NCBI RefSeq assembly: GCF_963676685.1
Contig: NC_092352.1
Coordinates: forward strand, 85,622,001-85,686,000
Origin: Mytilus edulis
Lineage: Eukaryota
Length of the DNA stretch: 64,000 bases
Direction of reading: 5' to 3'
The notes beneath the pieces were generated by a model. It did no database searches, was not told where the DNA came from, and saw nothing but the letters and a program-made list of their open reading frames with translations. This document shows positions 29,265 through 46,649 of this stretch, piece by piece (positions within the stretch are counted from its first letter, which is position 1; each line of letters opens with the position of its first letter). The position numbers and the translations under genes are program-made.

Positions 29265-31609
29265 TGCAGTGGATTATTCTGAATAAAGGACAGGAATTAC
29301 CAGTGCCGCTTTCCCATTTATACAATGGGTTTCGCGATACGAAGCGGTTTATGATTGTGATGCCAATATATGAGTATCTTATATTCACTGCGTCCAGTTA
29401 TCGATGAATCACACGTTATGGGCAGATCTGATTCACTGAGTTCTGTCCGTTAAAAGCTATTAGCCAAAAGATACAAGTCAATCTAATCATGATAATGTAC
29501 TTTGAATCTTCTGGGAACATATAATTTTTTTTAAAAAAGATGCATATGTGACGTTTGTGCTCATTGCGAAACCCAATGTTGTTGAATGTTAAGTGTTTCT
29601 CAGAAATGGTAATGGAAGTGCATAATTAGTGCTAATCCAGGTTTCTCCAAATGTGGTAGAAGTGCGGAAACCAGACAAATCAGGACAAATAGTGTGATCA
29701 GTTGTATCATCCAAACATTTTGAGAAACTACAAATAACTGTGCTTGTGTTAATTTGGAATTATTCAGTAAAATTTATTCTTGATTATTTAAAATCTTATT
29801 TCTTATTTCAGTAATTATCATAAATAGAACTGCTCCGGTGTTCAGGGCTTTCAATTGTTTTTTTTTTTTAATTTACATATTATTCTATAAACTAATTTCA
29901 GGCTTTACAAAATGCCTAAATTTAGAAATGCCTGTAACATATACACAGTAATAAGCTAACTTTCCGTAATCAATAGGAATACACTAGTGAGACTGGATAA
30001 ATTATGAATTGTATTGTTTTTCGTATGAAGTATAGTTTCTGTGCATAAAAGGTCGCGTTAGGGGAGCATTTCACTAAAATTGAGAGATCAGTTTATAAAC
30101 ATTACGATGAAATTAACTGTGCATGTGATTTAGAAACAAATTCTACCGTTATGGTTGTCAAGATGGATGGAAACACCAACAGATAAATATAATTGAGTAA
30201 CTTTTGCAAAAAATCAATTAAAAGCAACAGTAGTAAATCAATTAAAAGCAACAGCAGTACACCGATTGAGAGAAAGCAAATCTTGGTTACAAACTAAAAA
30301 CCAAAAACACTAAAAAAACTATAAGAGTAAAAAAACAAAAAAACTACAGAAACACTGATTTTCAACAAAAAACAAACGACAATGCAACACACAAGAAAAC
30401 GAACTATAAGGTAACAACTGTCCTTTTCCTGAGTTGGTTGAAATGAAATGACAGGAATACAACACAAATGAATGCAAGAACTCTCAGGACAGAAAAAAAC
30501 ACAAATAGACAATGCAATAATACATTTCGACGTGTTAACAATAGAATAAAAACGAACACGTAAAACAACCTATGTAGGACAGCACAACAGAACCAGAAAT
30601 ATTTGGGTAGTTTGGGTATCAAAGGAAAGCTTTTTGGATCACTTTAGAACCCTTAGTAAAAGTTTATTTTGAATAATAAAGATGTATATAGAATGTTGAT
30701 AGGAGGGCACATTTGCCCTGTTGTTCAATTAAGAAGAACCTGTTTTTTTGTACTATCGAACTTCTGGGAACCAGTACTCTCTTATATGAAATTAAAGGTA
30801 CAGGTATGTTGAATTTTTCAAAACAAGTCATGTTAAGGTACTAGTACAGTTTAGACATTAAATAACTGTCCCTATATTTGAACTTAAGACAAAGACTCCA
30901 TTTATGCTTGAAATTGCAGAATTTAAAATAGAAAGCAATGGGGCCATTTATTAGTGTTTTTTTTTTACCATGAGTGGTTTTCTGTTTTGAATTTTCGATA
31001 TTTTTGATTTTACATTTTTTGTAACGATAACATATTGTTTATGGAGTCGATGTTTGTGAATGTACTGAATAAATATGAGACAATAATGATTTTTCTGATC
31101 TAATGATAGACATCTTTGCAAGGCAAGTGTTAAGATCAAGTCTCACCCTCTCTGTGGATCGTTACCATTGGCGGGCAAAGACGAGGGATTAATTGCTTAT
31201 CCACATTTACCATAATTTGGCATAAATAGAATACTAGTACTTGTTTGTTTTTAATGATTTTCACATTCGTTATTAATTTTGTTTTTCAAACATTTTGGTT
31301 CTAACTCCACTGGTGAACCGCGTGTATGCGGACATTACATTACCGGCCTTCTCAGTTAAAAGGGGTCGGTTTCACAAAAAAAACTTACAACTAAGATTGG
31401 TCTTAAGTCATGAACAAATCAATATACTTACGATTAATCTTAGTCGTAAGTTTTTTTTGTGAAATCGAATTCTGGTTTCTTGTTCAGTCTTTCATCGGCA
31501 GCAAATCGAGTAGATAACACAAGCATCACTGATGTTTTTCTCATCTTATAATGACATAGATTATGCACAATTTTTAAAATGATATTATTTTTTTTTATTG
31601 AAATCGTTC

Positions 31610-31848
31610 TTATGCACTTTTCAAATAGTGATAGCATGTCACTGGAACAGATCTTCTAGATAAGGCAAATGATAAACAGTCTGTATTCTGGAATGCATCT
31701 AGTCTTTGCGAAAGACAGTTTTCCAGAAAGGTTTTTAAGTGTTGTACATGTGTTTTATTATGATGCCAGTTGGTATGAAAGTCCTCCACTAAATGAAATA
31801 ATTTATCAGGTATAGGCAACACACTTTTATCTAAATAGCTTGTCCTCT
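31610..31848 (-). CDS. FOXRED2: FOXRED2-like terminal exon 10 (copy A)
   Basis: [35 protein letters not shown]...CYHYLKSA, then TAA at 31612-31610; AATAAA at 31599-31594. Confidence 0.9.
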
Positions 31849-43520: not shown

Positions 43521-44288
43521 TCATTTATTATTTAAGTCTGTAGTTCCTATCTCCGTTAATAATTCCCCTTTCCCATTTCGTAACCAGTATCCTATCTCTA
43601 ACCCCCACAAAAGTCATTCCATTTCATTTGCTGTTAATTTCCGTTGATGTGTATTGATCTCCACAGGAAGGAAATTGACAAACAGAAACCCCATTGGAGA
43701 TTTAGCTTATTAAATAAACCATTTTTATGTTTTCTAAAAAGAAAAATAATAATTAGACATTTGTACTGTGTGGAGAAGAGAAGAAATATTTTATTAAAAT
43801 AATTTAATGTTAAAAATACAAAATAACCATAATAATAAATAATAGTTTTAACCAAAGCACTTTTTGAGACGAAGTGCAATGCTATATTGAAAAAAATCAA
43901 GATGTGCTTATCTTGTAAACAATTCAATATTACAATATTCTCTATATCTCAAACTTGTCTCAAGAATATTTTTCTACGGAAGACATGTAATCTACGTAAA
44001 ACAATAAACACCTCGTCTGAGACCAATAATTAGATCAAAAGTGCTAGTAATAAGACATTTATAGAAACCTTTTATGAGGTAATTTGCCACGAAATATTCA
44101 GCTACGACAAAATTATTCAATTACCAAATATTACATGACGAATTTCGTCAAATAATGAAATTGGTACATGAATAATTTAGACATAATACGTAAATTGATT
44201 AATCAATTGAGTATTGTGAAGTATAAAACGTTGTTTGATGTATATATGGTATGTCCTGAGAGGTTGTTTTCATTAGCCCTTTCAATTT

Positions 44289-46649
44289 TAAAAACGAATA
44301 AACTTCATCTTTTTGGTCGCGAATATAGTTGTGGAATAAAAGGCACTCAAAACACAATAAATTAAAATGAGGCAATTCTATTAAAGTCAATATTATGCTC
44401 AGTAGAGATGAGGCCCGAAATCCCAATTTCAACTTTTTAATACTAGCTTTAATCTTGTACCTTGTGCAACTATCAATGATAGTCAAAATCTCTGTCTAGC
44501 AGAAAGGGAAAGGAAAAACAATTCTATTCAACACGAACTCTATGTTGTATTGTACAGTGTATCAATTGTTTACAAAAATGTAAGGTGATCTATGCATGCT
44601 CCTTAGAGTTAATATAATGATATTCAGAACATATAATATATTCATGAGTTAATTGAAATACCTTTTTTATGAGTAATCAAAACAGTTGTAATAATATGTT
44701 TGAATAACAAAATAACAATATAAAAAGAGAAATCGGCCGCAGCGTTCACTCTACTTGGATAGAGAGACAATTCTGGCTAGGTAGAAAAACCCGCCTGAGA
44801 AAAAACTCGTTGTTATACTCTATGGTTTCATATATATATATATATATATAAAAAATATAACAGAGATTACTTTTCCACTGGAGACTTAGGCCCTACAGCC
44901 TCTGCTTTGTGATTTTGAAATGGTATATATACATATTGAAATAGTTCGTCACTATTATCTAATTGTTACGTGCAGACACGATTGCATGGTGGCCCCAGTG
45001 AAATTGAATCTCCATTTGTCAATGTTGTTGCAATCTTATTTAAACCAATACATTTTACATTGATCTGATAAAAAAATGTTTACATTTGCATACAATTTTA
45101 CAGAACTTGCACTTATATACCAAGATTAATAGGTATTAAACACTACTTTTGACAAAGAAGCCTGCTTCTACAGACAAAATTTTATAATTATATTTTTTAA
45201 TTTTTTTTTTTAGTATAGCTACAAGAATATTTATTTTTACTAAAAATGAATATTCAAGGACGCTTACCTATTCATATTTGTCATTTTACGTTAATAATCT
45301 ATATTTTATCAAATATGACACACATCAGGTTAAAGTACAACGAAACGTATAGATTATATATACTAACCCTGATAACAGACACCCCGCAGAAGTATTGCAT
45401 TCATGTTGAAATTGTCCATATGCTCTTTTGCAATAATTATTGTTGGGGGATTTTTTCCTTTTATCAGAGTTTTGTTACTTCGTTATTATTTTATCAAATT
45501 TACATAAACTTATCTTTTTGTAATCGACCTGTAGTTCTCGATCAAGATTCTTGAAATATAACAGAATGTTTACAGAAAGTGGTGCAATGACTGTTATAGA
45601 CTAGAATTAATTTATTGAAAGATTTGTTTCCCCATTTCCAGAAAACAACAACAAAAACTATTGATTACGGACCTTAAACATGAAAAAAGTGCATGAAAAT
45701 CTGAATTTGTTCATCAGGTCTAAGCTTCATCTGATAAATAATACTGCCATTTGAATTTATATTTTGCTTCTAATTATATATTTCAGAGAGGACAAGCTAT
45801 TTAGATAAAAGTGTGTTGCCTATACCTGATAAATTATTTCATTTAGTGGAGGACTTCCATACCAACTGGCATCATAATAAAACACATGTACAGCACTTAA
45901 AAACCTTTCTCGAAAACTGTCTTTCGCAAAGACTAGATTCATTCCAGAATACAGACTGTTAATCATTTGCCCTATCTAGAAGATCTGTTCCAGTGACATG
46001 CTATCACTATTTGAAAAGTGCATAAGAACGATTTCAATAAAAAAAAAAATTCATTTTAAAAATTGTGCGTTATCTATGTCATTATAAGATGAGAAAAACA
46101 TCAGTGATGCTTGTGGTATCTACTCGATTTGCTGCCGATGAAAAACTGATCAAGAAACCAGAATTCGATTTCACAAAAAAACTTACGACTAAGATTAATC
46201 GTAAGTATATTGATTTGTTCATGACTTAAGACCAATCCTAGTTGTAAGTTTTGTTTTGTGAAACCGACCCCTTTCAACTGAGAAGGCCGGTTGTAATGTC
46301 CGCATACACGCGGTTCACCAGTGGAGTTCGAACCAAAATGTTTGAAAAACAAAATTAATAACGAATGTGAAAATCATTAAAAAACAAACAAGTACTCGTA
46401 TTCTATTTATGCCAAATTATGGTAAATGTGGATACGCAATTAATCCCTCGTCTTTGCCCGCCAATGGTAACGATCCAATTTAATCCACAGAGAGGGTGAG
46501 ACTTGATCTTAACACTTGCCTTGCAAAGATGTCTATCATTAGATCAGAAAAATCATTATTGTCTCATATTTATTCAGTACATTCACAAACATCGACTCCA
46601 TAAACAATATGTTATCGTTACAAAAAATGTAAAATCAAAAATACCGAAA
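44289..46649 (+). pseudogene. Inverted duplicate (copy C) of FOXRED2 distal intron 9, exon 10 (45787-46025) and 3' flank, with premature stop
   Basis: Reverse complement of ~30993-32845. Acceptor TTTCAG at 45781-45786 intact; Leu codon TTA changed to TAA at 45960-45962, removing the last 21 residues. Confidence 0.88.

Follow-up and report, generated by a model that had tools for sequence, protein, structure and literature searches.

The question raised by this locus is whether a gene can exchange its last exon by inversion. The window, the whole stretch of 64,000 nucleotides of Mytilus edulis DNA analyzed here (contig NC_092352.1, positions 85,622,001 to 85,686,000 of the forward strand), holds a FOXRED2-like gene whose exons 1-9 lie between two inverted copies of its terminal exon. 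A sequence-only reading had proposed that a crossover between the copies could flip the intervening block, much as invertible phase-variation loci do.

The FOXRED2-like gene and its surroundings

The FOXRED2-like gene has 10 exons, with its coding exons on the minus strand. Exons 1-5 (41824-41668, 40931-40748, 40215-40087, 39146-39016, and 38046-37926) and 6-9 (35492-35256, 34702-34548, 33877-33712, and 33256-33021) all conform to GT-AG and share one open frame; the exon 10 in use (31610..31848) ends in ...CYHYLKSA followed by TAA. With this exon the open frame is 584 aa, and its product is that of M. edulis record P0009 (0 differences in 584). A putative non-coding first exon at 43417..43540 (minus strand, 5' limit uncertain) is predicted only from a strong donor, AAAAAG/GTAAGT at 43417/43416.

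The product is ~47-55% identical to animal proteins named FOXRED2, with homology over its full length, carries the Pfam domain Pyr_redox_3 (pyridine nucleotide-disulphide oxidoreductase domain) and has a hydrophobic N-terminus; judged by its sequence, the gene is a member of the FOXRED2/ERFAD family. In homology, domain and N-terminus it resembles the FOXRED2/ERFAD flavoproteins (PMC3040216), but the mussel product ends in LKSA and has no KDEL-type signal; among 105 non-Mytilus homologues, KDEL occurs in 7/105 and KEEL in 2/105. A second paralogue lies elsewhere on C9. FOXRED2 in Mytilus was the subject of no paper in the searched literature. Among the 24 runs listed, no RNA run contains the locus, which has no bearing on its expression.

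Arm B (30993..32845, minus strand) belongs to the intact gene: it spans the distal part of intron 9 and the whole of exon 10, then runs ~620 nt into the 3' flank. Arm C (44289..46649, plus strand) is an inverted copy of these parts lying upstream of the gene, and the spacer with coding exons 1-9 (32846..44288; exons on the minus strand) is 11,443 bp. Alignment and a check of the sequence bear out the earlier description of each arm as distal intron 9, acceptor, exon 10, AATAAA, and 3' flank, and of the ~11.4 kb between them as holding exons 1-9, which are in open frame. Both arms have the same AG acceptor context, and in both AATAAA lies 13-14 nt past the normal stop. Self-BLAST gives two blocks, 30993-32001 against 46649-45634 (96.5%) and 32013-32845 against 45119-44289 (94.4%), and in a global alignment B and C differ by substitution at 53 of 1841 columns (2.9%), with a further 15 indels, one of them of 480 bp. 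The inverted pair is thus real, but calling it near-identical repeats of ~1.9 kb overstated the case: identity is 97% with a 480-bp gap, and the lengths differ, B being 1853 bp and C 2361 bp, since two pieces of intron 9 retained in C, of 480 and 24 bp, are missing from B. Exon 10 as a genome query has three matches, all inside the window, so the B/C pair is not a dispersed repeat; unique sequence is doubled in reverse near its source, as in a local inverted duplication.

Downstream of the gene lies cassette D (18789..25001, minus strand), in which exons 6-10 (25001-24765, 24235-24081, 23616-23451, 22987-22752, and 19027-18789) are repeated in direct tandem; this older copy also matches part of intron 5. 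Its frame is intact, its last 343 aa are identical to record P0002, and it differs from the main gene by 13 non-synonymous and 22 synonymous changes (dN/dS 0.15). The direct orientation of D favors the present orientation of the gene as the old one. The earlier remark that a flip would cut the gene off from this downstream cassette holds, given a crossover.

Divergence of the arms and exon 10 of arm C

With cassette D as outgroup, 15 of the 53 substitutions fall on B, 17 on C, and 21 are unresolved. The longest perfect B/C run is 161 bp, against 126 expected by random scatter, which reaches 161 bp in 11.7% of 5000 trials (p = 0.12); in the zone where a crossover would change the protein the longest run is 115 bp. 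Differences are sparser in the distal part of the arms (20/1025, 2.0%) than in the proximal intron (33/816, 4.0%; p = 0.011), which could reflect partial conversion or constraint. To judge from the aligned sequences, the arms are diverging without homogenization.

Were a crossover to fall within the 1.17 kb of arm B that separate 32845 from the stop position, exons 1-9 would be connected to exon 10 of C (45787..46025, plus strand). The acceptor of that exon is intact, and the two variants previously reported in it, GCA to TCA at 45939 (Ala557Ser) and TAA at 45960-45962, are present. Exons 1-9 joined to it have a frame that ends at 563 aa without Cys577, so the predicted shorter, Cys-less product (563 against 584 aa) is what such a crossover would yield. 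Three changes have arisen in exon 10 of B since the D outgroup, all synonymous, and three in that of C (Ala to Ser, the stop, and one synonymous change behind the stop), numbers too small for significance (Fisher p = 0.4).

The lost tail is strongly conserved: among the 105 non-Mytilus homologues Cys577 is found in 104, Cys563 in 102, and Pro574 in 90, and 104 extend at least 15 residues beyond position 563. A structure model predicts that the tail forms helices at 560-569 and 575-583 (pLDDT 70-84). The C-type product would lose Cys577 and both predicted helices, so that the two orientations would not both give an intact protein, and of the six Mytilus proteins in the database whose sequence extends into exon 10, none has a C-type end. 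The best reading of exon 10 of C, from its sequence, is a decaying pseudo-exon; its intact acceptor and AATAAA count against decay.

Contig depth and the origin of arm C

Read depth was taken from assembled contigs over 28500-45170; contigs drop minor variants, and their depth is not a copy number. Three DNA runs, X1, which matches the window, and X4 and X7, which are the only two other individuals, all contain the gene. In the C part of bin 44068-44623 the leftover depth of X1 is 24.6, where single-haplotype contigs have 7.6-10.8; the corresponding figures are 6.7 against 49-66 for X4 and 1.0 against 3.6-5.4 for X7. The B and C intron bins summed over unique depth give 2.55, 1.37, and 0.72, respectively. 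Both arms are therefore filled in X1, and X4 and X7 have about one diploid copy by contig depth. Arm C thus appears to be absent from two other mussels, and depth suggests that it is hemizygous. X4 has one exon-10 contig at full local depth (103.7) with three listed differences, none C-derived, and a contig of run X15 (31594-31789) has the same three.

An assembly error, in which the allele of the other haplotype was placed beside the gene as arm C, is very unlikely. The 2.9% by which the arms diverge does come close to differences between alleles, X4 pieces showing from 6 mismatches with the window in 1106 bases to 37 in ~1330, and no listed contig piece crosses the 44289 junction, nor is a joint from 44288 visible, the tables of joints and loose ends being filled by dispersed repeats. 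However, the window is gap-free, with no N, and X1 fills both arms at ~2.5 times unique depth. An X1 contig also ends at 30999, beside the last B/C difference (30998), as would be expected where continuations branch, and a stop-bearing allele in reverse orientation would be an unusual false duplication. B-C divergence was rejected as a clock: C-type letters also occur as alleles in other animals, in X4 at 31302, 31742, 31778, and 32610.

Arm C is probably a one-off, haplotype-specific inverted duplication that is decaying upstream of the gene, and not a second switch state. A single event would have created it, template-switching repair being the likeliest route: an allele close by, which still carried the 480-bp segment of intron 9, would have served as the template, and the copy would have been placed in reverse orientation 11.4 kb away. 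As the block now stands, C lies upstream and on the opposite strand, out of reach of splicing from exon 9, and so would drift. Of validated human 'inversions', 54% proved to be inverted duplications placed close to the sequence they came from (PMC4617611), and in Mytilus hemizygous structural variation is pervasive, with heterozygosity of 1.73% (PMC7653742). The human variants likewise place a reversed copy close to its source, look like inversions, and have a single origin, but nearly all are <1 kb and within 5 kb, whereas the mussel copy is 2.4 kb, lies 11.4 kb away, and includes a terminal exon. The Mytilus variants are likewise extra sequence limited to a haplotype in a highly heterozygous genome, although the focus of that study is on whole dispensable genes and C is a partial copy.

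By its sequence the window fits a single inversion with staggered breaks as well as it fits insertion. Such an inversion would have flipped exons 1-9 once and irreversibly relative to other mussels; B would then be the younger copy, carried along with the gene, and C the original exon, left to decay. Intron 9 runs unbroken into B, and the ancestral 480-bp segment survives in C, where D agrees at 305 of 371 aligned bases. In Drosophila, 17 of 29 inversions have inverted duplications of up to ~1.9 kb, unique sequence reversed around a block and often containing decaying gene fragments (PMC1885836); the mussel block is known here in its present arrangement. This scenario requires that the older cassette D stood head-to-head with the gene before the event, and there is no second duplicated pair linking the left flank with the upstream end of the gene. 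An X4 contig may also speak weakly against it: its variant at 31031 is 71 letters inside the nearer contig end, so that the contig runs past 30993, perhaps into the left flank. We regard an inversion scar as unlikely, though not far-fetched.

Attempts to fix the direction of the event from a repeat split by the insertion were unsuccessful, as 43600-44288 has one genome match, itself. The arm flanks have no shared junction homology. Starting 7 bp past the end of C there is a locus-specific inverted pair (46656-46887 and 47663-47906, perhaps to 47925; 83%), which was rejected as a transposon family since a genome search that skips common words gave only partial matches of 35-90 bp elsewhere. Apart from this ~240-bp pair, a search of the three junction regions for short defined crossover sites gave only chance-level palindromes and pairs of 10-13 nt. 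Of 17 frames of at least 95 aa in the window, three are FOXRED2 exons, 13 have no Pfam family and one was unscanned, a survey that a split or distant recombinase would escape. In metagenome scans, a 32-nt pattern taken from the 3' flank common to both arms had no match, and exon 10 had one unrelated 23-residue match.

Possible inversion between the arms, and what the locus means

Ectopic crossover between the arms would be possible in principle, as a rare mutation that likely makes a hypomorphic allele. A low-frequency inverted allele encoding the 563-aa protein could thus have followed insertion of C: 1.85 kb at 97% identity, 11 kb apart, is a possible substrate, and because its stop would lie in the last exon, nonsense-mediated decay is not expected. 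In humans, small inversions flanked by inverted repeats are recurrent (PMC3961182). Recurrence of human inversions is predicted by repeat length and not identity, and 28% of recurrent ones lack flanks of at least 10 kb, according to 10.1101/2021.12.20.472354; these findings count against the reading of C as a one-off duplication. Against such an allele stand the short perfect runs of the relevant zone, the seeming absence of C from the two other animals, and the loss of a near-invariant Cys, and we consider it quite improbable.

Recurrent toggling of the block, so that homologous recombination maintains two isoforms in animals or populations, would resemble the yeast flip/flops. The Ogataea polymorpha MAT locus, which the mussel locus recalls in size and layout, has identical 2-kb arms and a 19-kb spacer and needs RAD51 (PMC5720833), and the arms of the Saccharomyces chromosome XIV flip/flop are continually homogenized (PMC9731477). 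Like the mussel locus, these have kilobase-sized inverted arms (2-4 kb in the yeasts) around a block (11-24 kb), and they invert by homologous recombination, no dedicated recombinase being known. The retained acceptor and poly(A) signal of C also favor such a reading. However, the mussel arms are inverted and kilobase-sized but neither identical nor homogenized, differing at 68 places, and where both yeast orientations have been observed and are functional, the second mussel state would be a truncation, with no C-type protein among the six Mytilus records. A maintained mussel flip/flop is most improbable. Scarcely more credible is that C-carriers flip the 11.4-kb block by ordinary homologous recombination, with three selectable 3' ends (B, truncated C, and D by splicing). 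Inversion here would also swap a C-terminal segment, as the R64 shufflon switches PilV C-termini (PMC11852207), but in the shufflon the Rci recombinase acts at 31-nt sfx sites and every segment is a functional alternative, whereas the mussel arms are kilobase-long gene pieces. The proposed likeness to invertible phase-variation loci finds no support: the arms are not homogenized, exon 10 of C carries decay-type changes, two other mussels are apparently single-copy, and none of the six Mytilus proteins has the C-type end.

The searched literature contained no paper uniting all the terms of inversion-driven last-exon choice, and if both orientations were found, the locus would be a toggling terminal exon in an animal, new to that literature. 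On our reading, the locus is a structural variant of an ordinary sort, in a genome where such variants are well known: a decaying local duplication that mimics a DNA switch. A better lead than arm C is cassette D, a second 3' half that is both intact and under constraint.

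The FOXRED2-like gene and cassette D

The window (G000:C9:85622001-85686000 in the 1.37-Gb source genome) is AT-rich DNA without gaps. On its minus strand ten GT-AG exons form a single 584-aa frame, whose product is identical at 584/584 residues to the Mytilus edulis FOXRED2-like record P0009 and matches Pfam Pyr_redox_3 at residues 22-349. The exon 7 acceptor is AAG both in this main gene (34703-34705) and in cassette D (24236-24238), and the M. californianus protein has two extra residues at that joint. Another FOXRED2-like paralogue, with exon-wise identities of 34-53%, lies at G000:C9:20066320-20073022, and its five matches recur on an unplaced contig (G000:C1840:3593-10295). 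Tandem arrays occupy 7437-8588, 14599-15117 and 15239-15727, with periods of ~161, 126/261, 159 and 192 bp.

Cassette D repeats exons 6-10 in direct orientation (25001-18789) with frame and splice sites intact; its exons are phase-compatible with exon 5, and a computed join to exons 1-5 gives 584 aa. Compared with the main gene, its exons carry 13 non-synonymous differences and 22 synonymous ones, giving a dN/dS of 0.15 (p = 1e-7 when tested against neutral evolution), and introns 6-8 differ by 7-10%. The last 343 aa of D are identical to record P0002, and D has I511 and V584 in common with the M. californianus protein. Intron 9 measures 3724 bp in D and 1172 bp in the main gene, and the middle of the former (19250-21350) matches neither arm B nor arm C except in dispersed repeats. 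The differences per exon are uneven (2, 9, 6, 3 and 16; p = 0.0015), which may reflect conversion. D may serve as an alternative 3′ half, or it may be what is left of a second gene. At exons 6-10 the contig depth in run X4 (87-129) resembles that of a single diploid copy, and the depth in X1 at exons 7-8 (29-36, versus 17-21 in unique sequence) looks like more than one; D is apparently missing from X4.

Divergence of the inverted arms and the exon 10 of C

The inverted pair described by the sequence-only reading is indeed present, with arm B at 30993-32845 (minus) and arm C at 44289-46649 (plus), and a genome search with exon 10 gave three matches, B, C and D (18745-19076), all inside the window. 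An alignment of B with C shows 53 mismatches among 1841 aligned bases, together with 15 indels. Intron 9 of B is without 480 bp and 24 bp that are present in C, and the 480-bp segment is also found in D (305 of 371 aligned bases match). Several of the positions that distinguish B from C are ordinary allelic variants in X4, and C would have been copied from an allele with the 480-bp segment, so the 2.9% divergence is not an age. Polarised against D, 15 of the substitutions are assigned to B and 17 to C, with 21 unresolved. The distal part of the arms is closer (20/1025) than the proximal intron (33/816; p = 0.011), a contrast that counts against reading the arms as not homogenised and that could be due to partial conversion or constraint. 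The longest perfect run, 161 bp, is part of the 3′ flank, and crossing-over there would leave the protein unchanged; random placement of the 68 differences gave a mean longest run of 126, and one of at least 161 in 11.7% of 5000 trials. Where crossing-over would alter the product, perfect identity extends over 115 bp at most.

Both 3′ flanks carry a 100-bp imperfect palindrome (31366-31468 and 46165-46267), whose very great contig depth marks it as a small repeated element. A high-copy dispersed repeat (~30600-30969) stops short of the distal end of B by 25-30 bp; of its 40 scored candidates, most have their end at query position 362. A locus-specific inverted pair at 46656-47925 (~240 bp arms, 83%, 775 bp apart) starts 7 bp past the end of C; being more diverged than B/C, it is probably older than that duplication, and it might have been the fragile site.

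Computed splicing of exons 1-9 to the exon 10 of C does, as had been proposed, stop the frame at 563 aa (TAA at 45960-45962). Exon 10 holds six B/C differences: the three on B are all synonymous, and the three on C comprise Ala557Ser, the stop and, beyond the stop, one synonymous substitution, a polarity that is only suggestive (Fisher p = 0.4). Among 105 aligned non-Mytilus homologues (from 119 other listed matches, 14 partial, very long or near-duplicate ones being dropped), 104 run at least 15 residues beyond 563, and Cys577, Cys563 and Pro574 are present in 104, 102 and 90, respectively. The predicted structure (mean pLDDT 80.3) folds the tail into helices 560-569 and 575-583, and we infer a Cys563-Cys577 bond. 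The C-type end occurs in 0 of the 6 members reaching exon 10 in a protein cluster of 10.

Contig depth in other animals

Assembled contigs of four sequencing runs (X1, X4, X7 and X15) were aligned to 28500-45170, a stretch that ends before the distal junction of C. Pieces of X1 as long as 3029 bases agree with the window at every position; this run is probably the source of its assembly, so it is not independent support. Subtracting the unique share of bin 44068-44623 (40% unique, 60% arm C) leaves C a depth of 24.6 in X1, 6.7 in X4 and 1.0 in X7, beside single-haplotype contig depths of ~8-11, 49-66 and 4-5; the X4 value ranges from -5.8 to 17.2 when other unique bins serve as base, and contig depth, with minor variants dropped from contigs, is not a copy number. 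X4 has one exon-10 contig, at 103.7 (the full depth there), with listed differences only at 31724, 31742 and 31778. A contig of X15, by guess RNA, has the same three; being confined to exon 10 and its flank, it is uninformative on splicing. Among the pieces listed for the four runs, none crosses 44289. Depth and the X4 and X15 contigs give hints about C in other animals. We think it very unlikely that C arose by misassembly.

Switch, inversion or inverted insertion

The layout that suggested an invertible switch does resemble that of yeast flip/flop loci, the closest working systems. As described for Ogataea, 19 kb is inverted between two identical 2-kb arms and RAD51 is needed (PMC5720833); the Saccharomyces account has 4-kb arms kept homogenised and both orientations seen (PMC9731477). 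Here, in contrast, the arms are not homogenised and the second state is not intact, and a maintained switch is scarcely credible. In the R64 shufflon, as reported, a recombinase swaps C-termini at 31-nt sites (PMC11852207); no sites of that type were seen here at the three junction regions scanned, and for 13 frames a scan gave no Pfam family. Our literature search found no paper on FOXRED2 in Mytilus or on inversion-driven last-exon choice. For human recurrent inversions, one report gives flanks of at least 10 kb in 72% and per-generation rates between 3.4e-6 and 2.7e-4, and names the length of the repeats, not their identity, as the predictor (10.1101/2021.12.20.472354). In the light of such data crossover could have produced a rare inverted allele, as a mutation rather than a programmed event; we consider such an allele quite improbable.

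Two one-off events are both compatible with the window. C may have been inserted in reverse orientation, copied from an allele still carrying the 480-bp segment, with the ancestral haplotype running from 44288 straight to ~46650; template-switching repair is the mechanism proposed for such an insertion. Alternatively, exons 1-9 may have been flipped in an inversion whose staggered break duplicated the segment, leaving the scar of a single past event. The window fits this too, and duplications of the kind are described at 17/29 Drosophila inversions (PMC1885836), but the older D is direct-oriented with the gene, matching part of intron 5, and a second duplicated pair marking the other breakpoint was looked for and not found. 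We therefore favour inverted insertion, also because local inverted duplications are reported as 54% of validated human 'inversions' (PMC4617611), and regard the inversion scar as unlikely. Mytilus genomes are described as abounding in hemizygous variants (PMC7653742), and C is probably a decaying, haplotype-specific inverted duplication.
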